DNA of 64,000 bases from a virus: IMG/VR virus record IMGVR_UViG_3300032235_000792. One strand, written 5' to 3'. The first letter of the stretch is position 1; each line of letters opens with the position of its first letter. The position numbers and the translations under genes were made by a program. Of the stretch, positions 1-61,722 are shown one piece after another. Below the pieces are notes generated by a model. That model ran no database searches. It was not told the DNA's origin and saw only the letters and a program-made list of their open reading frames with translations.

Positions 1-39
1 CATACCTATCTAACAACTGAACACGGTCCATATTCACCT

Positions 40-198
40 CTATAGTTTATCTTTACAGCACATCAACATAAATAAGTCGAACATATTAGGGCGCCCAATG
101 CCTAAGTACATAAACGTGAATACTAGGTTAGCTACAGCTTGACCACTAACTCCACTGGCGTACTCCTTCATCTGTTCATCTGTTATTTCTCTATTCAC
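40..198 (-). CDS. micro-ORF, 52 aa, motif family (LVFTFMYLGIG)
   Basis: Hand translation GTG..TAG; start overlaps the upstream stop (TAGTG); below ORF-track cutoff. Confidence 0.55.
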   Translation of the reverse strand: MNREITDEQMKEYASGVSGQAVANLVFTFMYLGIGRPNMFDLFMLMCCKDKL

Positions 199-308
199 TA
201 AAGCTCCCTATGATCTATATCTTCTAAAAACAAGTACCACACTACAATAAAGAACCTACGTAGCACAACCTTATCTTCATCAGAGCTATACTTATATTCA
301 GTTACCAC
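198..308 (-). CDS. micro-ORF, 36 aa hypothetical
   Basis: Hand translation MVTEYKYSSDEDKVVLRRFFIVVWYLFLEDIDHREL; tightly packed between neighbours. Confidence 0.45.
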   Translation of the reverse strand: MVTEYKYSSDEDKVVLRRFFIVVWYLFLEDIDHREL

Positions 309-312
309 AAGC

Positions 313-393
313 TTACTTAGCATGCATACCGTATATAGCCATAACTCGTTGAGCCCCAGTTATTACACCTATTCGTACTAAAATATCGAACAT
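313..393 (-). CDS. micro-ORF, 26 aa, motif family (MFDILVRIGVI)
   Basis: ATG overlaps the stop of 393..941 (TAATG coupling). Confidence 0.5.
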   Translation of the reverse strand: MFDILVRIGVITGAQRVMAIYGMHAK

Positions 394-941
394 TAAGATT
401 CTTCTCTCAAAGTTTGGCTCCATAAGCTAATCCCCTCTAGTTTCATCAACCGTTCAGCCTCACCACCTACCAATAATAGCTTAACACTATACTCAGCTAG
501 CCGCTCATAATCCATACCATCCTCATCAAAGCCTATATCCATATTTATAGTTCCACTAGCACTACGCACATATCTTACAAAGTCTTTCCACTCACCAAAT
601 ACATTAATAACTGCATAGAATACCTTAGCAACCATATACATAGGCTCATCTACATCACCATCATAATTAAAGTCTATATCTTGTACATTAACATACTCTT
701 TTATCTCAGCTACAACAGGCACATCGTCACCTACTACACTAAAAGAGAAGCCACCTACTTCACCTATAGAACTAAACCTAGGGGCTTTACTTATGAACTC
801 AGAGACCTCACTAGAGTGGGACGAGGCGTTCACTTCTCGGCCAACTGTAAATTGACCTGATTCGTCTGAGAATAGACCGTATGGACCTACTATTTGGGCG
901 TGGAAGCGGAGCTTGTATTGAACCATCAGTATACCCCACAA
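393..941 (-). CDS. hypothetical protein (likely start ATG ~926)
   Basis: 182-aa ORF; GGGG SD-like sequence before MVQYKL. Confidence 0.75.
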   Translation of the reverse strand: MWGILMVQYKLRFHAQIVGPYGLFSDESGQFTVGREVNASSHSSEVSEFISKAPRFSSIGEVGGFSFSVVGDDVPVVAEIKEYVNVQDIDFNYDGDVDEPMYMVAKVFYAVINVFGEWKDFVRYVRSASGTINMDIGFDEDGMDYERLAEYSVKLLLVGGEAERLMKLEGISLWSQTLREES

Positions 942-1042
942 AGTTATATATGATATCTGTTGTAGTTATACAAGCCATTGTATTTACGAGTTAGTCGAGG
1001 GTAAAAGATAGGGTTTGGCCGCGAGCCCCATAGCCCCACTTC

Positions 1043-1312
1043 GTCCCCAACAGACCAACTGCCTGCCCATCGACAGACCAGCGCGCGGGTCCCAACAGAT
1101 CGGTCCACGCGTACCGAGCAATGTTAGGCCGCAACATTGCTCAGCGCGACAGGCCTGTTACTGGCCAACAGACTGTTTCCCTAGGGGGTTTTGAGGTGCC
1201 TGCTGGCCAACAGAGCTCCCCCGTTGGGCGGCGTAGCAGTGTCACAGACGTCTAGCTGCCAGCAGACCCGCTTAACAGACTGCTGGCGTAGGACCTGTGG
1301 ACTTAACAGACT
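1043..1312 (+). repeat. GC-rich non-coding cluster of AACAGA boxes with inverted repeats
   Basis: Exact AACAGA at 1049, 1094, 1167, 1209, 1274, 1305 plus 4 near matches; perfect 10-bp inverted repeat 1116-1142. Confidence 0.85.
1230..1244. repeat. conserved 15-mer GGCGTAGCAGTGTCA, copy 1
   Basis: Exact copies at 1230, 2296, 3709, 4368, 5130. Confidence 0.95.
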
Positions 1313-1535
1313 ACTCTTCTAGCATCTTGTTGATGGCCAGAGCTGCTCTGACTTCTGCTAGTAGCTCATCGTCATCACTGGCATAGGACTCGTACTCCTC
1401 TAACAGCTCTTGATCTGTCATATTGCGCAGCCCCGGAAAGTTACCGCCATAGAGGATATAGTCTCTGAGTTCAAAACAGCCATACATGTCATCGAACAGT
1501 ACATCCATCAGCTTGTTTCTAGTAACTTCGTCCAT
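1311..1535 (-). CDS. small acidic hypothetical protein
   Basis: 74-aa ORF with AGGAG SD. Confidence 0.8.
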   Translation of the reverse strand: MDEVTRNKLMDVLFDDMYGCFELRDYILYGGNFPGLRNMTDQELLEEYESYASDDDELLAEVRAALAINKMLEE

Positions 1536-1553
1536 ATTAGCTCCTTTATGGTT

Positions 1554-1584
1554 AAAGAAAAGGCCGGAGAGTTACTCCGGCCTT
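1554..1584 (-). terminator. intrinsic terminator after paralogue 1
   Basis: AAGGCCGGAG/CTCCGGCCTT stem followed by U-rich tract on minus strand. Confidence 0.85.
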
Positions 1585-1588
1585 GGAA

Positions 1589-2071
1589 CTAGCCTACTAA
1601 GTGACGTAGGTGCTCTGGGAGAGCGTCAACATTGATCTCTACTTTAGCTTCGGGCTTGATCTCTGCTAGTCTAGCATCAATCGCTTGTTGAACTTGTGTT
1701 TTAGTTTCAGCATCAGTAACCGTCTTGAGTAGAGCTTTAAGAGCTTTGATCTGAGCGTCACCAGAACCAGAGCGAGAACCTGGGTTTTTGGTGGTATAGC
1801 TCTGACCATTGTTGAACTGCGGGTTCTTTCTAATCCAGTTATCTAGTAGGCCAGAGACATACTTCTTAAGCTCGGAGTCAAAGGCATACTTATCACTAGC
1901 TTCGGCTGACATCTGGACTTGGCCAGAGCGGAAGCCAGCGACCAGCTTCTCTTTCATAGTATTCTTTTGCTCTGAAGTTATGATGTCGGACAGCACGACT
2001 TCACCGCCCAGCTCATAGTTAGGCACTACAGACATGACAACTTGAGTAACTGCATCTTTTTGACTAATCAT
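1589..2071 (-). CDS. unknown ~160-aa early protein, paralogue 1 of 3
   Basis: Shares GFRSGQxQMSxEASDKYAFDSEL, NWxRK and KNPGSRxGSGD with 3760..4248 and 5372..5857. Confidence 0.9.
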   Translation of the reverse strand: MISQKDAVTQVVMSVVPNYELGGEVVLSDIITSEQKNTMKEKLVAGFRSGQVQMSAEASDKYAFDSELKKYVSGLLDNWIRKNPQFNNGQSYTTKNPGSRSGSGDAQIKALKALLKTVTDAETKTQVQQAIDARLAEIKPEAKVEINVDALPEHLRHLVG

Positions 2072-2295
2072 ACTAAACCCCTTTAGTAGCTAGCATTATT
2101 GCTAGTGATTAAATATAATATTTGTTAGAGTCCTTGAGTTAATAACTGACAGTTCATCATTTTAGGTGTCTGCACTGTCAAACCGCCCACCGGATACTAA
2201 TATGCCTAGTCCACGCTTGTTAGTCTATGTAAGACTTTTTTACAACCGTATTGGTTGATGTTAATATATAGAATCTGTTAAGGCGGGGGATGGCA

Positions 2296-2310
2296 GGCGT
2301 AGCAGTGTCA
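2296..2310. repeat. conserved 15-mer, copy 2
   Basis: Exact match; abuts hairpin 2311-2328. Confidence 0.95.
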
Positions 2311-2341
2311 CTCGGCCACTAGGCCGAGCGCACGCTGGAGG

Positions 2342-2545
2342 CTAGAACCCTTGGGAGGTGAAATCCAACTCTCCATCTTCTTCATCGTAACTATCTTCTA
2401 CATATACTTCTAGTGTATCTTCGTCACTGAACTCGGCATTCATATCATCTAAGTCTGCCTGTTCGATAGCATCTCGTATCTCTTCCTCAGTATCGATGTC
2501 GTCCTCAAAGTCCTCGTATGAATCGAATAAGTTCATGCTTCTCAT
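2342..2545 (-). CDS. extremely acidic 67-aa protein (possible nucleic-acid mimic)
   Basis: 28 D/E versus 2 R; AGGAG SD. Confidence 0.8.
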   Translation of the reverse strand: MRSMNLFDSYEDFEDDIDTEEEIRDAIEQADLDDMNAEFSDEDTLEVYVEDSYDEEDGELDFTSQGF

Positions 2546-2578
2546 ATAACTCCTATGTTTATTTAGTTTTAAAGAAAT

Positions 2579-2594
2579 GAGCCATCCATGGCTC
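2579..2594 (-). promoter_or_regulatory. leader hairpin with ANGGA loop (CsrA/RsmA-type)
   Basis: GAGCC-ATGGAT-GGCTC on minus strand. Confidence 0.65.
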
Positions 2595-2601
2595 GAATAA
2601 C

Positions 2602-2829
2602 TTAGGCACAGTACTCACGAAGACGCTTGTTGTACTTGATTCTTAAAGCTTCAGCCTCAGCTTTTAGCTCAGCCGCCTTATCATCAGAGCTCGTCTTCAT
2701 AGCGTCAGCGAGTTTATTCCAGTAGGCTGATTTGAACTTAGCCAGGTGCTGTTCATGAAACTCGATCGCTCTAGGATTCTGGATGTCTTCAACTCTAGTA
2801 ACACCATTACATTCTTTAGATTTAGTCAT
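2602..2829 (-). CDS. hypothetical protein
   Basis: 75-aa ORF, GGAGG SD. Confidence 0.8.
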   Translation of the reverse strand: MTKSKECNGVTRVEDIQNPRAIEFHEQHLAKFKSAYWNKLADAMKTSSDDKAAELKAEAEALRIKYNKRLREYCA

Positions 2830-2871
2830 TTAACCCTCCCAAGGTTAGATCATCTACTAGATGATCATTTA

Positions 2872-2896
2872 ATTATGATATATTATAGAATCTGTT
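2872..2896 (-). promoter_or_regulatory. AACAGA-N13-CATAAT promoter
   Basis: Same geometry as the four TATAAT copies; followed by 5' hairpin GATCATCT/AGATGATC. Confidence 0.65.
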
Positions 2897-2904
2897 GGAG
2901 ATAT

Positions 2905-3222
2905 CTACAGACAGGCAGCCAGCCATCTTATTGTATTCTCAATATCTTCTCTATCTTTGATGTAGTCTTTGCCATCATGACAACCACAGCGGCTAGACAC
3001 AACCATATCATCATCTATGTGTATCTGGCATGGTGGACACTCATCATTCTCATACAGCCATTCGCCAGTGAAGTCTTCAAACTCCGCTTGCTCGCTCTCA
3101 CTTAGATGGGAATAGTCTGGTACATTCTTAAGATATGAGTATGCATGATCACAATCCCAGTCATACCCAATCTCTTTGTCACTTTCCATGAATAGCTTTT
3201 TCAAATCACCAAGTGTTTTCAT
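2905..3222 (-). CDS. acidic Cys-containing hypothetical protein
   Basis: Start moved to MKTLGD (GGAGG SD); CPPC and CGC motifs. Confidence 0.8.
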   Translation of the reverse strand: MKTLGDLKKLFMESDKEIGYDWDCDHAYSYLKNVPDYSHLSESEQAEFEDFTGEWLYENDECPPCQIHIDDDMVVSSRCGCHDGKDYIKDREDIENTIRWLAACL

Positions 3223-3238
3223 GTTACCTCCAAAGTTA

Positions 3239-3254
3239 GAGCCATCCATGGCTC
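3239..3254 (-). promoter_or_regulatory. leader hairpin with ANGGA loop
   Basis: Identical to 2579-2594; lies just upstream of the SD. Confidence 0.65.
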
Positions 3255-3262
3255 GAGTTTAG

Positions 3263-3616
3263 TTAGACTTTGCGGAACTGTAAGATACCGTAGTAGAGAC
3301 CGTTGCCAGAACCATCTTGCTCATAGAATAAGCTATAACCATAGTGCTTCATATATATCTCAATGGCTTCAAGTACACCATTAGTTTTACAGTTATCACC
3401 GAGCATCCAACTAACGAACTTGTCGCTCTCCTCCTTTTTGCCCCACAGTTCTTCATCGCTAAAATCATAGTAGACAACGATATCACTTGGGGCGAGATCA
3501 GCTTCATCACCAAGCGACGCCTCATCGTGGGTGATCACACTTAAGTTACCGAGCTTTGGGTAATAGTTGTAGTGGTTTAAGAACTTGCCGAGTGCACTTA
3601 TCATAACTTGATCCAT
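3263..3616 (-). CDS. hypothetical protein
   Basis: 117-aa ORF, GGAGG SD. Confidence 0.85.
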   Translation of the reverse strand: MDQVMISALGKFLNHYNYYPKLGNLSVITHDEASLGDEADLAPSDIVVYYDFSDEELWGKKEESDKFVSWMLGDNCKTNGVLEAIEIYMKHYGYSLFYEQDGSGNGLYYGILQFRKV

Positions 3617-3632
3617 AGTTGCCTCCGAGTTG

Positions 3633-3649
3633 GAGTCAGTCCGTGACTC
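3633..3649 (-). promoter_or_regulatory. leader hairpin with ACGGA loop
   Basis: GAGTC-ACGGACT-GACTC. Confidence 0.65.
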
Positions 3650-3662
3650 GATTAATATTGTA

Positions 3663-3687
3663 ATTATAAAAATATATAAAGTCTGTT
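3663..3687 (-). promoter_or_regulatory. AACAGA-N13-TATAAT promoter
   Basis: Conserved box, 13-nt AT-rich spacer, perfect -10. Confidence 0.75.
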
Positions 3688-3708
3688 AGAGTTTGTGTAG
3701 GTGTGAGC

Positions 3709-3723
3709 GGCGTAGCAGTGTCA
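3709..3723. repeat. conserved 15-mer, copy 3
   Basis: Exact match. Confidence 0.95.
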
Positions 3724-3751
3724 AAATAATAGGTGGGGCTTTCGCCCCACC
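3724..3751 (-). terminator. intrinsic terminator after paralogue 2
   Basis: GGTGGGGC-GAAA-GCCCCACC plus U-rich tail. Confidence 0.85.
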
Positions 3752-3759
3752 GTGGTGGC

Positions 3760-4248
3760 CTAGCCTAGCAGGTGGCGTAGGCTTTCAGGTATCAAGCTCG
3801 CATCGATCTCGATCTTAGGTTTCAACTCTTCAAGACGCTTATCGATCTCGACTTGGATGGTTGCCTTGACCGAAGGGTCGTTGACAGTACTCATCAATGC
3901 TCTCAGAGCTTTCAGCTTCTCGTCACCAGACCCGCTTCGTGATCCAGGATTCTTGGCTTGGTAAGTGTTGCCGCCGTTGAACTCAGGTGCCTTACGCAAC
4001 CAGTTGTTCAGTAGTCCGACACAGTACTTGCGGAGCTCGGAGTCGAAGGCATACTTGTCACTAGCCTCGCTCGACATTTGGATTTGACCCGAGCGGAACC
4101 CAGCGATCAGCATCGCCACAGCGTTCTCCTTGTCACTCACGGTGAACACCTCACTCACAGGTGTCTCGCCATTGAGAGTGTAGTTAACACCACGCTTAGA
4201 AAGAGTAGCTAACACGATAGAGACAGTTGCTTGACGTTGATTAACCAT
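3760..4248 (-). CDS. unknown ~160-aa early protein, paralogue 2 of 3
   Basis: Start moved to MVNQRQ (GGAGG SD; aligns with paralogue N-termini). Confidence 0.9.
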   Translation of the reverse strand: MVNQRQATVSIVLATLSKRGVNYTLNGETPVSEVFTVSDKENAVAMLIAGFRSGQIQMSSEASDKYAFDSELRKYCVGLLNNWLRKAPEFNGGNTYQAKNPGSRSGSGDEKLKALRALMSTVNDPSVKATIQVEIDKRLEELKPKIEIDASLIPESLRHLLG

Positions 4249-4324
4249 ACGAGATCCTCCCAAGGATTAAGCGCGCACGACATGTGAGCACTATTAGTTA
4301 ATTAATATAATTAAATAAGTTATA

Positions 4325-4382
4325 TATTTAATTATAAATAATATTAAAGTCTGTTAAATTATATAGCGGCGTAGCAGTGTCA
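4325..4382. repeat. 58-bp exact duplicate of 5087-5144 (promoter plus 15-mer copy 4)
   Basis: Direct comparison. Confidence 0.95.
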
Positions 4383-4402
4383 GTAGGCCTTGCGGCCTAC
4401 TG
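4381..4402 (-). terminator. hairpin (GCAA loop) after 4413 gene
   Basis: CAGTAGGCC-GCAA-GGCCTACTG; no U-tract, runs into the 15-mer. Confidence 0.6.
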
Positions 4403-4412
4403 CACCAGATAA

Positions 4413-4688
4413 CTAGACGACCAGTCCTTGGTCTTGGAGTTGTTGGTCAAGTGTCTTACCATCGTAGTTGAGTAAGTCACTACCATCGTTGAGATCAGTG
4501 AACATATCCTGCTTGACCTCGCTATAGGTCTGCACACACTCGGGATCCTCGTGGCACATGAACCACAGTTGACCGTTGATGCTGTAGACTTCGAAGTCGT
4601 AGATAGCGTGGTTACCGATGTGGACACAGCCGACATGGTTAGATTCAAAGTCTTCGTGGTTAAAGTTAGATGGATCGAAAGTTGTCAT
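4413..4688 (-). CDS. acidic hypothetical protein
   Basis: Start moved to MTTFDP (GGAGG SD). Confidence 0.8.
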   Translation of the reverse strand: MTTFDPSNFNHEDFESNHVGCVHIGNHAIYDFEVYSINGQLWFMCHEDPECVQTYSEVKQDMFTDLNDGSDLLNYDGKTLDQQLQDQGLVV

Positions 4689-4706
4689 GATTACCTCCAA
4701 GATAGA

Positions 4707-4722
4707 GAGTCGTCCATGACTC
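4707..4722 (-). promoter_or_regulatory. leader hairpin with ANGGA loop
   Basis: GAGTC-ATGGAC-GACTC. Confidence 0.65.
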
Positions 4723-4757
4723 AGTTAATTTATATTGATTGTTAAGATTTGTTAGGG

Positions 4758-5027
4758 CTACGCTTCGGTATCCCAGCGGAAGAGTAGCTCGTTGTACTTA
4801 GCTTCGCTGATCACCACCCAACTCCATGTGTTAAGGTAGCGGACCGCATGATTCTTCTTGCCAGTCATGCGCAGCGACTTGCCGTACATTTGGGACTTGG
4901 CTCGCTCTTTGATGACACCAGACTCTTTATGGCCGCTCAGCGAGTGCGACTCATACTCGTAAGAGTAAGGGTTGTTGTCAGTGGCGTCGATAGCACGGAC
5001 GAGCTTAATGAGTGACAATGATTTCAT
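4758..5027 (-). CDS. basic hypothetical protein
   Basis: 89-aa ORF, GGAGG SD. Confidence 0.8.
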   Translation of the reverse strand: MKSLSLIKLVRAIDATDNNPYSYEYESHSLSGHKESGVIKERAKSQMYGKSLRMTGKKNHAVRYLNTWSWVVISEAKYNELLFRWDTEA

Positions 5028-5042
5028 AGTACCTCCAAGTTG

Positions 5043-5059
5043 GAGTCAGTCCGTGACTC
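5043..5059 (-). promoter_or_regulatory. leader hairpin with ACGGA loop
   Basis: Within a 31-bp exact duplicate of 3628-3658. Confidence 0.65.
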
Positions 5060-5086
5060 GATTAATATAATAAATAATTTTAATTT

Positions 5087-5144
5087 TATTTAATTATAAA
5101 TAATATTAAAGTCTGTTAAATTATATAGCGGCGTAGCAGTGTCA
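5087..5144. repeat. 58-bp duplicate (promoter plus 15-mer copy 5)
   Basis: Identical to 4325-4382. Confidence 0.95.
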
Positions 5145-5184
5145 ATAGGTAAGCGGGCCATCATGGCCCGCATAACCTCGGAGA

Positions 5185-5277
5185 TCACTCAGCATCTTCG
5201 CTAAGCAATTCATAATCATCGTAATCAAGATAGCTTAAGTTATAATCATCATCTTCATTCATATTTATATCGTTCAT
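5185..5277 (-). CDS. 30-aa acidic micro-protein
   Basis: MNDINMNEDDDYNLSYLDYDDYELLSEDAE; GGGGA SD; followed by hairpin 5153-5171. Confidence 0.65.
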   Translation of the reverse strand: MNDINMNEDDDYNLSYLDYDDYELLSEDAE

Positions 5278-5342
5278 AATTTCCCCCATTAGTTATATCC
5301 GCTATTAAGTACCAAGATAGACATCTTAATACTTAATAGAAG

Positions 5343-5362
5343 GGAGGGACTTTCGTCCCTCC
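5343..5362 (-). terminator. terminator hairpin after paralogue 3
   Basis: GGAGGGAC-GAAA-GTCCCTCC. Confidence 0.8.
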
Positions 5363-5371
5363 AGTTAACCT

Positions 5372-5857
5372 CTAGAGTAGGTGGCGTAAGCTCTCAGGGA
5401 TCAGATCAGCATTGATCTCGATCTTAGGCTTAAGCTCTTCGATTCGCTTATCGATCTCAGATTGGATCGTAGCCTTGGTAGTAGGATCACTTACCTTAGA
5501 CATCAGAGCTCGTAGGGCTTTCAGCTTCTCATCACCAGATCCCGTTCTAGATCCAGGGTTCTTAGCTGTATAAGCATTACCACCGTTGAACTCAGGAGCC
5601 TTGCGGATCCAGTTGTTAACCAGACCAACCACATATTTCTTAAGTTCAGAGTCGAAGGCATACTTATCAGAAGCCTCAGAGGACATTTGTATCTGTCCAG
5701 ATCGGAAGCCCGCGACCAGCTTGTTGACAGCTTGTTCCTTGTCAGTTACCGTTAGGACATCTGCGATACATTGCTCACCGTTTAGGTTGTAGTCGATACC
5801 GCGCTCAGAGAGAACAGATAAGATAACAGATACAGTTGCTTGACGTTGAGATACCAT
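5372..5857 (-). CDS. unknown ~160-aa early protein, paralogue 3 of 3
   Basis: Clear paralogue; AAGGAG SD. Confidence 0.9.
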   Translation of the reverse strand: MVSQRQATVSVILSVLSERGIDYNLNGEQCIADVLTVTDKEQAVNKLVAGFRSGQIQMSSEASDKYAFDSELKKYVVGLVNNWIRKAPEFNGGNAYTAKNPGSRTGSGDEKLKALRALMSKVSDPTTKATIQSEIDKRIEELKPKIEINADLIPESLRHLL

Positions 5858-5875
5858 TGAGAACTCCTTGGTTAT

Positions 5876-5891
5876 GAGTCATCCGTAACTC
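5876..5891 (-). promoter_or_regulatory. leader hairpin with ANGGA loop
   Basis: GAGTT-ACGGAT-GACTC, 8 nt downstream of TATAAT. Confidence 0.6.
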
Positions 5892-5899
5892 GGTGGTTA

Positions 5900-5924
5900 A
5901 TTATAAAAATTTATAAAGTCTGTT
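5900..5924 (-). promoter_or_regulatory. AACAGA-N13-TATAAT promoter
   Basis: Same geometry; a second variant lies at 5954-5978. Confidence 0.75.
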
Positions 5925-6102
5925 AAAAAATAGGGCCGGGTAACTTTATTATTTATATAAGTATTGTTAAAATCTGTTGGATCTGGTACCCCACGAACTC
6001 TGGGAGGACACTTCGCCATAAAATAGGGCCCACTGGCTTCTACCCCATAATAGGCAAACTCACCAGGTACCACTACTTCAATTTTTATATATTATTTTTT
6101 AT

Positions 6103-6246
6103 CTAACAATAAGGCCAGAAATAATACCCACTGCCGTACCACTTCTCATCTTGGGTCATCTCAAACTTGAACACACCTAAATTCTGAAACACGCGTAACA
6201 ACCGCATTCTTTCCTGATAATCATTATAATTATTCTGAAAACTCAT
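6103..6246 (-). CDS. micro-ORF, 47 aa, motif family (LLRVFQNLGVF)
   Basis: Hand translation; GGGGTG SD. Confidence 0.6.
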   Translation of the reverse strand: MSFQNNYNDYQERMRLLRVFQNLGVFKFEMTQDEKWYGSGYYFWPYC

Positions 6247-6259
6247 CTTCACCCCAACC

Positions 6260-6349
6260 TCACATATCGAGCTCAATAAGACCTAACCTATATAAGGTGA
6301 ACCACATAGATATCTCACAATAAAAATCGCCATACCACTCGTCAAACAT
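6260..6349 (-). CDS. micro-ORF, 29 aa, motif family (MWFTLYRLGLI)
   Basis: Hand translation; GGTGAG SD; overlaps upstream ORF end. Confidence 0.55.
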   Translation of the reverse strand: MFDEWYGDFYCEISMWFTLYRLGLIELDM

Positions 6350-6407
6350 CTAACTCACCAAGCCCTAACTTCGACCAAAGCATGACAATGAGATTAAACT
6401 TTAACAC
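6342..6407 (-). CDS. micro-ORF, 21 aa (MLWSKLGLG)
   Basis: Hand translation from GTG. Confidence 0.35.
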   Translation of the reverse strand: MLKFNLIVMLWSKLGLGELDV

Positions 6408-6420
6408 GATACCATCTTGC

Positions 6421-6690
6421 CTACTCTTCGCTGTCATCTTGAAACCTCTCGGCTAATACAAATCTTCTGTTGCATATCACATTGTTCCCTTCGTCCCAAA
6501 ACGTCAACACCACACCATAAACTTCCTGAGGGTTACTAAACTCGAAATTACCTAACCTATTGATCGTCAACCTAGGCTTTCTTTCCCATGTCACTATATA
6601 ACTCGTGGGCTCTAACAAACCTAGACCCTTCAATACATCGAGTGTATCTATGAGCGTCATAAAATCATTTAACCCTATATAACTTCGCAT
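6421..6690 (-). CDS. hypothetical protein, motif family (TLDVLKGLGLL); likely start 6660
   Basis: ORF track; MTLIDT start directly follows the stop of 6665..6793. Confidence 0.7.
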   Translation of the reverse strand: MRSYIGLNDFMTLIDTLDVLKGLGLLEPTSYIVTWERKPRLTINRLGNFEFSNPQEVYGVVLTFWDEGNNVICNRRFVLAERFQDDSEE

Positions 6691-6793
6691 ACCAGCGCAA
6701 TTCTCCCATCCATTCTATAAACTCATTGAACGATGTTGCTCTATCTATGAGATCTAACCGTCTCAACATGATGAACACGTCTCTAACTGTCAT
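6665..6793 (-). CDS. micro-ORF, 42 aa, motif family (VFIMLRRLDLI)
   Basis: Hand translation; GAGG upstream. Confidence 0.55.
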   Translation of the reverse strand: MTVRDVFIMLRRLDLIDRATSFNEFIEWMGELRWYAKLYRVK

Positions 6794-6822
6794 AACCTCG
6801 TGCCAATCGTCTGCTTGCTGAT

Positions 6823-6975
6823 TCACGGCTCTACATCCTTAACCACACCGATGCACCCGACGCTACCCGCGCCATCCGGTAGCTTGTTTATCTCGTACAT
6901 ATCTTCTGTCGAAAATATCCATATCATATCCAACTGGTCGATATCGTTAAATATTCGCCCCAATATCAACCACAT
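6823..6975 (-). CDS. micro-ORF, 50 aa hypothetical
   Basis: Hand translation MWLILGRIFND...; GAGG upstream. Confidence 0.5.
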   Translation of the reverse strand: MWLILGRIFNDIDQLDMIWIFSTEDMYEINKLPDGAGSVGCIGVVKDVEP

Positions 6976-6988
6976 TATCTTTCTGGCC

Positions 6989-7261
6989 TCAAAATCTTTC
7001 ATATATAGTTATTATATAGCCAATCTGCCCCAAGTCATCTCGAGTTACGCGCAGACCAGAAAGGCCGATTAAATTGAGCGAATTAAGGATCTTCAGGATC
7101 GGGCATAACGCCTCGAGATCACGGCCAGCAAATACGCGCGCACTATGATGTAGTTGTGACTTATTTGTCACGTGATTTCCGATCAAGGTAGATGACGACC
7201 CACGGTGCGGCCAGTGTTGCGACAAGTTGTGCGCCAGCGAGCATAACTCGCAGTAGTTCAT
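6989..7261 (-). CDS. hypothetical protein, motif family (ILKILNSLNLI)
   Basis: ORF track; ATGA overlap with the upstream micro-ORF. Confidence 0.55.
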   Translation of the reverse strand: MNYCELCSLAHNLSQHWPHRGSSSTLIGNHVTNKSQLHHSARVFAGRDLEALCPILKILNSLNLIGLSGLRVTRDDLGQIGYIITIYERF

Positions 7262-7368
7262 AAGTGGTCATTTAAGACCCCCATCTTTATTAAGACAGTA
7301 ATGACGCGGTAGAGCTTGCGTTTATCTTCGAAAGGTAAGCTTAGGAACGCGTTTGAGCAACGAAACAT
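7258..7368 (-). CDS. micro-ORF, 36 aa, motif family (VITVLIKMGVL)
   Basis: Hand translation MFRCSNAFLSLPFEDKRKLYRVITVLIKMGVLNDHL. Confidence 0.55.
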   Translation of the reverse strand: MFRCSNAFLSLPFEDKRKLYRVITVLIKMGVLNDHL

Positions 7369-7393
7369 GTTCGCTCTAGTTCTCAGAGCATGT

Positions 7394-7594
7394 CTAGTAG
7401 GTTTCACGACTGTCTCCGTTTATGATCGCTTGATAGATCTTCATTTGAAATGAATTGCACATAGTATAGTATTCTTTCGCTGTTATGACACGAAGCTTGT
7501 ATAGGGAGTACAACATTAGACCATGACGAGAGAATGTCTCGTGGATGGATTTAGCGTTATCAGAGCAGGTAAGTAAGTATTCTTGATAGTTCAT
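7394..7594 (-). CDS. hypothetical protein, motif family (MLYSLYKLRVI)
   Basis: 66-aa ORF. Confidence 0.65.
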   Translation of the reverse strand: MNYQEYLLTCSDNAKSIHETFSRHGLMLYSLYKLRVITAKEYYTMCNSFQMKIYQAIINGDSRETY

Positions 7595-7703
7595 ATAGTT
7601 CTTTTAAGTTATCAACAACTTATGCGGTAGGGGCCCCCTAACCGCTTCGCGGGACATTAAAAATGCTTGATAATATTATACTATGTTACAGTATAATAAA
7701 TGC

Positions 7704-8390
7704 ATGGACAACATAGTCAAGACATACTTAGAACAAATGGGTGCAATACCGATGCTTAGCGTGAAGGAAGAGGCGCGCATCGCTAAATTAGCATTTGAAG
7801 GTGATCAAGAAGCTAGGAAGATACTCATAGAGTCTAACTTGAGACTAGTTGTTTCTATCGCTAAGAAATACACCAGCTCAGGCATGGACTTACTAGACCT
7901 CATCCAGGAAGGTAACATCGGCTTGATGAAAGCAGTTGAAAAATTTGAGTATAAGCGCGGACATAAGTTCAGTACTTACGCTACATGGTGGATAAGGCAG
8001 GGAATAACAAGATCTATTGCAGATTCCGGTCGTACCATCAGACTGCCTGTTCATATGGTAGAAACAGTTGGCAAGATATTCCAGTCTATACGTGAAATAA
8101 TATACGACACCGGAAAAGAGCCAAGTGTTGCAGAGTTATCTAAGTATATGGGAATAACTGAAAAGAAATTAAGAGAAGCACTTGATGTAGCCAAGATACC
8201 AGTCTCGCTAGATATGAAGATATATGATGACTCGGCAAGCTTAATGGATAAAGTCCCTGATATAAAATTAGATTATCATTTAGATAGAGTCGATACGGCA
8301 GATCTCTCTAAGAATATAAAGATAATATTGAAGACTCTCACCCCAAGGCAAGAAAAAATACTGAGAATGAAGTTTGGGATTTCAGATTAA
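7704..8390 (+). CDS. RpoD-like sigma-70 factor lacking region 4.2
   Basis: Region 1.2, region 2 ([41 protein letters not shown]), RTIRLPVH and region 3 present; ends at LRMKFGISD; probable leaderless start 6 nt after TATAAT. Confidence 0.92.
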
Positions 8391-12846: not shown

Positions 12847-15030
12847 ATGGCAATTAATGTATCATTCAACGGTTCTACGATCTATAAGCCAGGTGCTTAC
12901 TCTAGAACTACAATAGATCTTGGCGGTGGATTTCCACTTGGTCCTGCTGGTATAGTAGCCATTTTTGGTGAATCAACTAAAGGAAAGCCCGGTAGCGAAG
13001 AAATTATCGCAAATAATGTATTTAATGCTAATCAGATAGCACAAGTTCGTCAAAAGTACGGATCTGGTCCTATTGTTGATGCCATGAACTTCTTGTTTGC
13101 TCCAGCTTCTGATGGAGCTATTCCAAGCGGTGCTCAAGCTGTGTACATCTATAAAACAAATGATTCAACTAGAGCGTCAATTGCTTTAGCTAATTCATTC
13201 GGTACTGTTAGATCTCTAGAGCATGGTGTTGGTGGTAACACTATTACATTCTCTGCTTCTGAAGTTTCTGAGGTTGCACCGTCATTGTCATCTTCTTCTG
13301 CATTTGATGAAGCAGCAATCGCTGCTGGTTCATTCGATATTTTCGTAAACGGTGTTAAATCTACTGTTGCTGTTGCTGGCGGTTATGCTGATAAAGCAGC
13401 TCTAGTTGCGGATGCCGCTTCGTGGTCGGTAGATGATGTATCTTTTGTAGTTGGTGGCGCAGATGGTGCTTGTACTTTACAAGTTTCAATTGATGCTGAC
13501 GCACAAGCTGCTAGAAAGGGTTGGGGAAAATCAATTCAATTAGCAGATGGTTCTGGCGCTCCTCTTGCTGCAATGAACATGTCTGAAGATATGGAAGTTT
13601 CTTCTGTTGAATCAGCTATGACAGTTACAATTAAACAAACAAGAGATCTTCTTCAAGAACAAGACACTATCGGTGGTAACGTTGTTCTAGAAGTTGGTTA
13701 CAGCGGTGCTCAAGCTGCAGCAAGCATAGAAATCACAGATACGCAAGTCATATTGACTGCTGGTGCATCTATCTCTATCGACAAAAGCTCATACCCAACA
13801 CTTAGTCAATTAGTTAACGCTATCAACCTTAATCCAGGATGGAAAGCCGCTCTAACTAGTTCACTATATAATTCAATTTCGCCTAAGATGCTTGATCAAG
13901 TTGACGTAGGCGCTAAATCACCTGACGCAGAAACTAGCAAGCCAGCAAGAATCAAGAAAGATTCTGGTGAAGCTGCTCAGCTATTTGCAGAATCTGCTAT
14001 CGTTGATATTGCAGATCAATCTTCTGCTGGATTAATGGATGCAATGTCTGAAGCTGCTTTGACTGGTGGAACACTTGGATCAACAACATCTGCAGACATC
14101 GTAGATGCACTAGCTGCTCTTGAAGGTGTTCGAGTTAATGCAGTAGTTCCTCTATTCTCTAGAGATGCTATCGTTGATTCTGACACTGCTACGGGCGATG
14201 TTGCTGATAATCTTACTGATGTCGCTTCATCATATACAATATTAGGTATTCATCAAGCTGTTAAAACTCACTGCAGCTTAATGAGCACAACTAAAAATAG
14301 AAGCGAAAGACAGGGTTACCTTTCTTATAAGAACGACTTCGTCTCTTGTAGAGAAAGAGCGTCACTTCTTGCTGATGCAAGAATGCAGCTTGCAATTCAA
14401 GATATTCGCAATATCGATTCTCAAGGAAACATCAAGTGGTTTCAACCATGGGCTCAAGCTTGTATGCTTGCTGGTGCTCGTTCTGGTTCTCCAGTTGGTA
14501 CTCCACTAACATTCAAATTCTTCAACGCAGTTGGAATCAGACAAACTGAACAGTCTATGTCTACGTCAGAAGAAGATATCATTGCTGATTTTAATCCTAA
14601 TACAGATGCTGATATTGCTATTCAAAGCGGTATTTCGTTCTTCGAAGCTCCTCAGTTGGGTGGAATAAGATGTGTCCTAGATAATACAACTTATCAAAAA
14701 GATGGTAACTGGGTTTACAACAGAGGTAACGTACTTTACGCTGCTGACATTTTAGCGTTTGATTTCAGAAATCAAATGGAGAATCTATATGTTGGTAAGA
14801 AAAATACAGTTAAAGCGAGTGAAATTAAATCAACAGCTTCTACTATACTAGATACATATCTAGCGCAAGGTATTACTGTCTCTTCTAATGGCGCACCAAA
14901 TGGCTATAAAGATCTTATTGTAAGTGTTAACGGTAATGTTATCAATATTAGCGTTACTGTAGTTCTTGTTGAAGGTATTGACTTTGTATTAAGTGATATC
15001 ACAATTACAAGAGCACAATCACAAGCTTAA
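12847..15030 (+). CDS. contractile tail sheath protein
   Basis: N-terminal FNG..IYKPGAYS; AIFGES..GKP; sheath-type C-terminus; 727 aa; TGnTATAAT promoter at 12801. Confidence 0.9.
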   Translation: MAINVSFNGSTIYKPGAYSRTTIDLGGGFPLGPAGIVAIFGESTKGKPGSEEIIANNVFNANQIAQVRQKYGSGPIVDAMNFLFAPASDGAIPSGAQAVYIYKTNDSTRASIALANSFGTVRSLEHGVGGNTITFSASEVSEVAPSLSSSSAFDEAAIAAGSFDIFVNGVKSTVAVAGGYADKAALVADAASWSVDDVSFVVGGADGACTLQVSIDADAQAARKGWGKSIQLADGSGAPLAAMNMSEDMEVSSVESAMTVTIKQTRDLLQEQDTIGGNVVLEVGYSGAQAAASIEITDTQVILTAGASISIDKSSYPTLSQLVNAINLNPGWKAALTSSLYNSISPKMLDQVDVGAKSPDAETSKPARIKKDSGEAAQLFAESAIVDIADQSSAGLMDAMSEAALTGGTLGSTTSADIVDALAALEGVRVNAVVPLFSRDAIVDSDTATGDVADNLTDVASSYTILGIHQAVKTHCSLMSTTKNRSERQGYLSYKNDFVSCRERASLLADARMQLAIQDIRNIDSQGNIKWFQPWAQACMLAGARSGSPVGTPLTFKFFNAVGIRQTEQSMSTSEEDIIADFNPNTDADIAIQSGISFFEAPQLGGIRCVLDNTTYQKDGNWVYNRGNVLYAADILAFDFRNQMENLYVGKKNTVKASEIKSTASTILDTYLAQGITVSSNGAPNGYKDLIVSVNGNVINISVTVVLVEGIDFVLSDITITRAQSQA

Positions 15031-60348: not shown

Positions 60349-61215
60349 TTAGTTTATGGTTTTTATTGATTTAAGAAAAATCGTAGCAGTGTCTCTGTGT
60401 CCGTTGTTTTTAAGTACATCGTTCCAGTCCATATCTGTATCGCCGGTAACAGCATAGTGAGTTATAGCTTTAGCCTTATTCAATTTACTAAGTCCTTTCA
60501 AGCCTGCTTCATCAGAGTCAAATGCACACACTATCTTAATGCCTGCATCTTTTAGTTCCAGCAATTTATCGATCTGGTGCTCAGTAGTTCCACAACCAGA
60601 GGTAGCGACTGCCTTCCATGGATTCTTAAGAACTCCACCGTAAAGTTTATCTAAAGATTGCTGAATAGATAGGGCATTAAATGCACCCTCACAAACAATT
60701 AAGCCTTTTATGTTAGTAACAAAAGGATTCTGGTTCCAGTTATAAAAAACAAGACCGAGACGTGTACCGGGTAGAGTAAGGACTTTAACAGTATCGCCAT
60801 CTCGCTCCCAAGGTTCTATTAGTCTAGTTTGTGAACCAACAAATACAGAGTCAAAATAATATGGAAAAACTATGCCTTCGCGCTCAGTATCATAGTACAT
60901 ATCACCTTTTGGATCAAGTCCTCGTGACCTAATGTATTCGACTCCTTTAATAGCCCTTGGATCAGATAGCGGTAAGAAATGAGAAGGCCAGTCCAAACGA
61001 GAAACCTCATTTGGTGTGGCTTTCGTCATATCAAAATCACCTTTAAGAAACTCGTTCAGATCCACGCCAGCAGTGTGGCAGTACTCTCTTAGAGAGTAAC
61101 CTCGTTGACATCTACCACTACACCAGCACCATATAGCTCCAGTATCTTCGTCTGAATGCCAGTAGATAGTATCATTAGGTCTTTTACAAATCAAGCATTT
61201 CTTGGTATTCACCAT
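60349..61215 (-). CDS. DNA primase (Zn finger plus TOPRIM)
   Basis: CLIC..CWC..C; VCEG..; FDSDEAG; DWND. Confidence 0.85.
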
Positions 61216-61290
61216 TGTGTAGTCCTAATTTTCTTAACGTAAAAATAATATCTATTTTTAGACCAATTACAAAAAATGGATCAGACTTTT

Positions 61291-61722
61291 TCATAATTTA
61301 AACCTATTGATCCAATCGAAAAAATTAACTTGAGCTTGATCTTCAGATCTAAACATTAAATAAAGCAATGGGTGATCCATTAGCTCAGATCGTTTTAGAC
61401 CTTTAGTGTAGTGTATATACTCTTTTCTTGTCATCTGTCGCGTGTCCATAAGGTATTTATTTACTATATTACCACCGAATATTTTCTGAAGATCTTCTAG
61501 CGATGAGGTGGCACTTGTGGTACTGTTTTCGGAAGATCTTTCTGTTGTATTACTTCTAGCTTCAGCAATGTCATCCACAGCCTTCTCTTCGTTATTATCA
61601 ATATCTTCTGATGCGTCAACCCTCTGATTTTCGACATAACTGAGTTCCTTTGCTTTACCTGTTATCTCTGCTAATTTTTGAAGAACTTCATCTTTACTCA
61701 TAAATATTAATTGTTGCGTCAT
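61291..61722 (-). CDS. hypothetical protein
   Basis: 143-aa ORF coupled to the helicase gene. Confidence 0.7.
   Translation of the reverse strand: MTQQLIFMSKDEVLQKLAEITGKAKELSYVENQRVDASEDIDNNEEKAVDDIAEARSNTTERSSENSTTSATSSLEDLQKIFGGNIVNKYLMDTRQMTRKEYIHYTKGLKRSELMDHPLLYLMFRSEDQAQVNFFDWINRFKL

Follow-up and report, generated by a model that had tools for sequence, protein, structure and literature searches.

A chain of conserved micro-genes sharing one short helix in a large uncultured freshwater phage

Helix C-capping motifs of the Schellman type (hydrophobic-x-x-L-G-hydrophobic) are found in all kinds of proteins. The internal proteins IPI, IPII and IPIII of phage T4 are diverse small proteins that share a short capsid-targeting sequence (PMC3012670); this tag, always at the very N-terminus, is removed by the prohead protease and targets late-made proteins for packaging. 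Phage SPO1 has a host-takeover module, described as a dense block of small early genes (bioRxiv 10.1101/569657); a host-takeover cluster of this kind is a functional class, not a homology family. Here we characterize a chain of ten micro-genes (29–89 amino acids (aa)) on the minus strand at 6103–7594 of the IMG/VR virus record IMGVR_UViG_3300032235_000792, a stretch of 64,000 nucleotides (nt) that was analysed whole and is called the window below. Nine of the ten carry a shared helix module. Like the T4 internal proteins, the chain products are diverse, fast-evolving small proteins with one short conserved segment in common, and gene content varies between related phages; PHROGs found no sequence similarity between the two groups. 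The proteins of the SPO1 module are, to our knowledge, not known to share one common helix; the chain has no homology to any PHROG family, and several of its genes are far smaller (29–36 aa).

The micro-protein family described here is real and previously undescribed. With moderate confidence, we read the chain as the first operon of a leftward gene block that encodes a diversified family on a common core helix, with products that would serve as early effectors. The block is probably early, and its ten micro-genes would be transcribed from a host-type sigma-70 promoter. Nine of them would constitute one family, defined by a helix of approximately 19 residues with an acidic N-cap and a helix-ending G, D, N or E, that arose by local duplications followed by divergence of everything except the helix. 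In the larger members the helix would pack on the remainder of the same protein, which is a sheet of three strands for F6421 and another helix for F6665, whereas members that are little more than the helix (27–35 aa) should be unable to bury it alone and would therefore self-associate or bind other members or a target. From the position and size of the genes, the products are most likely early effectors that take over the host or counter its defences, with a separate target for each. The tenth gene would encode a strongly conserved membrane peptide (TM36).

The eight peptides that a preliminary description of this DNA had listed as copies of an 11-residue motif were all found in minus-strand open reading frames (ORFs), each in its assigned place. 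Related loci (given L numbers below) were fetched from viral and metagenome collections using the sigma protein of the phage and the 89-aa F6421 protein as baits, taking contigs that encode close homologues. Chain families have orthologues in the same order in L001, L002/L011, L016/L024, L022, L023, L025 and L026, and the order is also retained in the far more distant L028 and L027, in which the 89-aa protein is only ~35% identical; in all, orthologues in conserved order were seen in at least 12 related metagenomic phage loci. The median ratio of nonsynonymous to synonymous substitution rates (dN/dS) per family was 0.13–0.48, with most changes at third codon positions. Judged by these comparisons, the chain ORFs are real genes under purifying selection. 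The proposal of a diversified micro-protein family held up in the same material, given that the syntenic orthologues all keep the pattern while using different residues and codons. A different genetic code or a single long frameshifted gene was dropped as an explanation, as the orthologues retain the same separate ORF boundaries.

Inside the module, differences per site were 0.43, 0.25 and 0.49 at codon positions 1, 2 and 3, respectively, so that the second position is the most conserved—a pattern that argues for selection on hydrophobic residues and not on a DNA or RNA word. It is very improbable, in our assessment, that the ORFs are untranslated and the peptide the shadow of a repeated nucleic acid element, such as a binding site or Shine–Dalgarno-like AGG runs. 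The L-G pair is indeed often encoded by TTAGGT or TTAGGG, and over 32 nt two of the sites are 72% identical (family D16); such an origin is nevertheless hard to reconcile with a dN/dS well below 1 and an excess of third-position changes in all families, with the codon-position pattern and altered codons just described, and with the lack of any Rfam match in 5800–7800.

The motif is concentrated in the chain. A core pattern derived from the data ([VLIMFWY]xx[VLIMFWY]xx[LIM][GNDR]hh, where h is hydrophobic) matched 11 times in the 549 aa of the chain, in nine of the ten proteins, and 11 times in the 17,901 aa encoded by the long genes of the window, making the chain ~30 times denser; the adjacent cassette genes, which include proteins of 67–95 aa, gave no match in 1,301 aa. 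Residue shuffles within each chain protein (2,000 rounds) yielded a mean of 0.78 matches and a maximum of 5, never reaching the observed 11, and the motif is thus commoner than in shuffled sequence. In a leave-one-family-out test, in which profiles from the other families scored the omitted family against shuffles of its own residues, family-median p values were 0.002–0.157 (0.011 for F6823) and the Fisher combined value was 6e-9. When a profile built without any window sequence was run against 1,590 six-frame pieces of the window, the seven best matches all fell in the chain or in ORF 313–423, which came fourth (15.1 bits) with no relative in the training set. Within the chain, G-over-C skew is confined to 6103–7002 (0.40–0.49, coding strand); the four genes at 6989–7594 are unskewed and the motif is present there, which indicates that composition is not the cause. 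The skew stops abruptly at ~7000, within one operon, and is due mostly to a scarcity of C at the second and third codon positions (few Ala, Ser and Pro); the left flank of the window (1–1000) has the same skew.

Families were aligned on the G/D/N position (position 0), together with families that fill the same slots in relatives and are absent from the window (c12, c18 and c20). The resulting register table of 11 families defines a common element of ~19 residues, [DE][DE]-h-x2-h-h-x2-h-h-x-h-h-x2-L-[GDNE]-h-h. Hydrophobic residues occupy −14, −8, −7, −5/−4 and −1 (almost always L), position 0 is G, D, N or E, and +1 and +2 are again hydrophobic. D or E is found at −16 or −15 in 10/10 aligned families, compared with a chance expectation of 24% (binomial P 6e-7); this acidic pair falls outside the 11 residues originally noticed, and the shared element is longer than had been seen. 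F6823 has the same arrangement minus one helical turn. The location of the module within the protein varies: six families have it close to the N-terminus, F7394 and F6989 in the middle, and F7258 towards the C-terminus.

AlphaFold models, made with family alignments for two families, place the element in a helix. For F6421 (predicted local distance difference test score (pLDDT) of 82.7), a short strand is predicted, then a helix at 7–22 before L23-G24, then three long strands; for F6665 (pLDDT 85.8), a helix at 3–23 before L24-D25, a loop and a helix at 33–50. In both, the helix stops 1–2 residues ahead of position 0, and in remote F6421 homologues the residues of the cap region are among the best conserved, the +1 leucine being nearly invariant. 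The models agree with the amphipathic helix and C-cap that had been proposed from the letters alone. The strand expected to follow is predicted in F6421, whereas in F6665 the cap precedes a loop and a second helix. The analogy to winged helices is not supported: a three-helix core with a wing is absent from both models, and no helix-turn-helix (HTH) family was found in Pfam; HTH-clan profiles gave no match to the chain proteins (Pfam E up to 1, NCBIfam E up to 0.1). From the secondary-structure layout, the helix of F6421 and of F6665 probably packs inside the protein's own core. The module is similar to a Schellman-type cap in that position 0 prefers G, N or D between hydrophobic flanks and both models end the helix there, but such a cap explains neither the fixed acidic pair 15–16 residues upstream nor the 30-fold local enrichment.

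Outside the motif the families are dissimilar, as had been claimed: profile–profile comparison finds their non-motif parts unrelated. The best hhalign probability was 34% (E 4e-4, F6260 versus F6103) and most were <5%, but the top-ranking alignments invariably cover the module, in register. Copy number varies in one place. The slot between F6421 and F6260 has one extra module-only ORF in the window, L022 and L023, two in L025 and L026, and none in L001, L002 and L016; those of L022, L023, L025 and L026 differ from the ORF of the window (o6342). A slot that holds 0, 1 or 2 such ORFs depending on the phage is consistent with ongoing duplication, as is the tandem arrangement of the chain genes. 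Repeated local duplication, with subsequent divergence of all but the helix, would be the most economical origin, although formal homology is not provable on 19 residues. The significant combined leave-out test likewise cannot separate descent from convergence.

Convergence would mean that tiny proteins need one amphipathic, well-capped helix to fold or oligomerise, and that unrelated genes reached the same pattern, aided by T-rich second codon positions. It would fit the commonness of the helix-capping arrangement, the low profile–profile probabilities and the make-up of the chain proteins, in which L, M, F, W and Y abound while A, S and P are scarce. We nonetheless hold it to be improbable: the small neighbouring cassette proteins do without the pattern, shuffles of the same residues fail to reproduce it, the acidic pair keeps its fixed distance in every aligned family, genes free of compositional skew retain the motif, and copy number varies in a single slot.

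The module family resumes past the cassette block. The window has a 36-aa ORF with the module (NFERRILMFDILVRIGVIT) at 313–423 on the minus strand, and L004 has several minus-strand ORFs of this kind, including one similar to 313–423 at 3781–3837 on the same strand. No module match above 8 bits was found in the stretches examined of the distant sigma-bearing phages L005, L007 and L008. At 61184–61294 (minus strand), between the primase gene and the gene upstream of it and overlapping both, a 36-aa ORF carries the same helix (8.4 bits), such that the family may have scattered members outside the early block. In three relatives the first slot of the chain is taken by a cysteine-rich protein of 44–54 aa with C..C.C motifs that ends in the same helix (L016 2777–2941, L025 502–636 and L026 2677–2835).

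Adjacent chain genes overlap by 4–26 nt, except at the last junction (a 13-nt gap), making translational coupling likely, and a Shine–Dalgarno-like purine run stands ahead of most starts. A sigma-70-type promoter-like site lies on the minus strand at 7693–7720 (TTGACT-16 nt-TATTAT, 10/12 consensus matches), followed by a ~90-nt leader with GC-rich hairpins, and no site resembling a terminator was seen from 5800 to 7800. On the basis of the promoter-like site, the overlaps and the uninterrupted interior, the chain is probably one translationally coupled operon transcribed by the host polymerase (sigma-70). The leader hairpins at 7600–7660, GCGGTAGGGGCCCCCTAACCGC then CCGCTTCGCGG, lie downstream of the promoter-like site and ahead of the first start codon, for which there is no Shine–Dalgarno sequence. 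A metatranscriptome contig matches 6472–6693 with one mismatch, which shows presence in an RNA library and is weak evidence for transcription.

This layout resembles the early small-gene clusters of large virulent phages, and that of the SPO1 module in particular: small genes are packed densely on the strand opposite the structural genes, adjoin repeated promoter–terminator cassettes and are probably transcribed by the host polymerase as infection begins. In the window, the small genes indeed lie opposite the late genes and have the promoter-like site at 7720–7693 (10/12), a match at consensus level only. The long genes at 7.7–59 kb are on the plus strand, the small genes of 1–7594 are read leftward, and the structural genes are on the strand opposite to the micro-gene chain.

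The helix might instead be, as in the preliminary description, a transferable docking tag by which all members bind the same partner (a host hub protein, part of the phage's assembly or packaging machinery, as with the T4 capsid-targeting sequence, or one another), with the remainder of each protein as payload and the module-only members as competitors or decoys. We judge this unlikely, yet deserving of serious attention. The helix is the sole conserved thing across otherwise unrelated micro-proteins; conserved module-only members of 27–35 aa occur in varying copy number, which is hard to explain by an internal core element alone; and the T4 internal proteins set a precedent for varied payloads behind one short tag (PMC3012670). 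Against a tag, the helix makes up a large share of the tiny fold in both modelled members and probably packs intramolecularly there. Unlike the T4 tag, it is not at a fixed end of the proteins (in only some families does it start among the ~10 N-terminal residues), certain members lack a payload altogether, and the genes are in an early-type operon, not among late genes. The payloads are without similarity to structural proteins of the window: family profiles run against all its six-frame pieces found none resembling a late or structural protein (every E >0.05). A complex prediction for F6103 with F6260 scored 0.01 ('no answer'), which speaks neither for nor against binding. We also consider it doubtful, at most a minority view, that the helix is a universal adaptor through which every member, down to the helix-only peptides, attaches to a single hub, be it a host protein or a bundle mixed from the family itself. 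If true, the phage would possess exchangeable tiny effectors and competitors for a single docking site, expanded and swapped by local duplication—an early-gene counterpart of the T4 internal-protein system with peptides down to 27 residues.

Several points weigh against our preferred reading, an early operon of effectors on a common core helix. The motif carries little information and looks much like any helix C-cap. No two families can be shown to be homologous with hhalign, and a single leave-out profile scores no higher than the best of 1,356 decoy pieces, only the collective test being significant. Burial of the helix in F6421 and F6665 is read from the predicted secondary-structure layout and not from coordinates. 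Early expression is deduced from layout only, and the lone RNA-library contig is no proof of transcription. The helix-only members suggest that the helix can also act alone, by associating with itself, with other members or with a target, which is why we keep the docking-tag idea as a minority alternative.

Searches placed the chain proteins in no known family. None matched a PHROG family at E below 0.06, an NCBIfam family at E up to 0.1 or, apart from one chance-level match to an unrelated family, a Pfam family at E up to 1. The F6421 model reached a best E of 0.11 (Foldseek, PDB) and 0.03 (BFVD) and a best VIA-align Z of 4.4, and for the F6665 model the top Z was 5.6, against generic helical hairpins; none of these values rises above the tool's stated noise levels; the ESM Atlas gave no usable feature match. 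F6421 has 25 close homologues, all without a name, and 19 matches among 1.84 billion representatives, in which the module is retained at 22–36% identity. Three long proteins among the F6421 profile matches (P0039, P0040 and P0041) were read as summed weak matches and not as relatives; repeat proteins of the MBG and PG_binding kinds account for two of them, and the other belongs to no Pfam family.

From the putative operon start, the first gene is F7394 (7394–7594, minus strand as for all chain genes; 66 aa), with the module at residues 19–37 (ETFSRHGLMLYSLYKLRVI), orthologues in L001, L022, L023 and L028, and a dN/dS of 0.19. F7258 follows (7258–7407, 49 aa; dN/dS 0.20), with the module near the C-terminus (EDKRKLYRVITVLIKMGVL) and orthologues in L001 and L023; in L002, L011 and L026 its slot is taken by other module-bearing genes (c20). 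The third gene, TM36 (7161–7271, 36 aa), was missing from the initial ORF list. It alone in the chain lacks the module, and no other chain gene is as conserved: it has eight distinct orthologues, a dN/dS of 0.13 and 148, 91 and 430 differences at the three codon positions. The gene, which encodes MTTYELLRV..AAPWVVIYLDRKSRDK, overlaps the start region of the next gene; a hydrophobic run followed by a basic tail predicts a single-pass membrane peptide.

The next gene, F6989, exists as proposed but is shorter than the 90-aa ORF 6989–7261 first assigned to it. The N-terminal part of that ORF, its first 30 codons, overlaps the TM36 gene and is interrupted by stops in L016, L023 and L026, placing the true start at GTG 7171 (6989–7171, 60 aa); the L023 orthologue begins MTNKK, aligned to VTNKS in the window. 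F6989 has the module RDLEALCPILKILNSLNLI, a conserved C-terminus GYIITIYERF and a dN/dS of 0.48, computed on the long ORF including the overlap. F6823 (6823–7002, 59 aa; dN/dS 0.19) has the variant module that is about one helical turn shorter (DFEARKIMWLILGRIF) and nine distinct orthologues. F6665 (6665–6826, 53 aa; dN/dS 0.26) has the module HEVMTVRDVFIMLRRLDLI, then the predicted second helix, and its orthologues reach the distant loci L027 and L028. F6421 (6421–6690, 89 aa; dN/dS 0.32) is the longest, with the module NDFMTLIDTLDVLKGLGLL and then the three long β-strands of the model.

The variable slot of the window is occupied by o6342 (6342–6437, 31 aa), a predicted module-only ORF (IVMLWSKLGLGELDV) for which no orthologue was found among the related loci; its tail, LGLGELDV, resembles LGLIELDM of the next gene. 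That gene, F6260 (6260–6349, 29 aa; dN/dS 0.35), is also module-only (GDFYCEISMWFTLYRLGLIELDM) and has nine distinct orthologues of 27–35 aa in which M, W, L and L are invariant. The last gene, F6103, is likewise real and shorter than first drawn: in place of the 57-aa ORF 6103–6276, the probable start is ATG 6246, preceded by the Shine–Dalgarno-like GAGG..GGGGTGAAG, giving 47 aa (6103–6246). The module NDYQERMRLLRVFQNLGVF is followed by FEMSQ..W.G.GYFWP, and the gene has ten orthologues and a dN/dS of 0.31.

The source of the window is a large uncultured tailed phage with a tail sheath gene (12847–15030) and genes for a virion protein, a Nudix-containing protein, a primase and a DnaB-like helicase. 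It has its own sigma factor at ~7704–8390, the sole match of the window to deposited phage records in a DNA search. DNA of this phage or close relatives is present in lake and other freshwater metagenomes from 15 studies. Contigs from two lake DNA runs link 4240 to 4707 via 25 other letters, and natural populations therefore include a variant without one 466-nt cassette segment. The intergenic stretch after the last micro-gene (5932–6100) is 74–79% identical to relatives, a conservation at least equal to that of coding DNA; its ORF-like pieces are in frames that differ between loci, which suggests a conserved non-coding element, and it has no Rfam match.

Genes of 27–60 aa are routinely missed by annotation; here, nine such families are conserved under purifying selection across a clade of freshwater phages. 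The shared helix profile provides a handle for finding more of them, and the chain is a compact experimental system for the role of a phage peptide of ~30 residues as fold core, oligomerisation element or docking tag. Such arrays raise the question of whether phages have in them a general way to diversify their early effectors.

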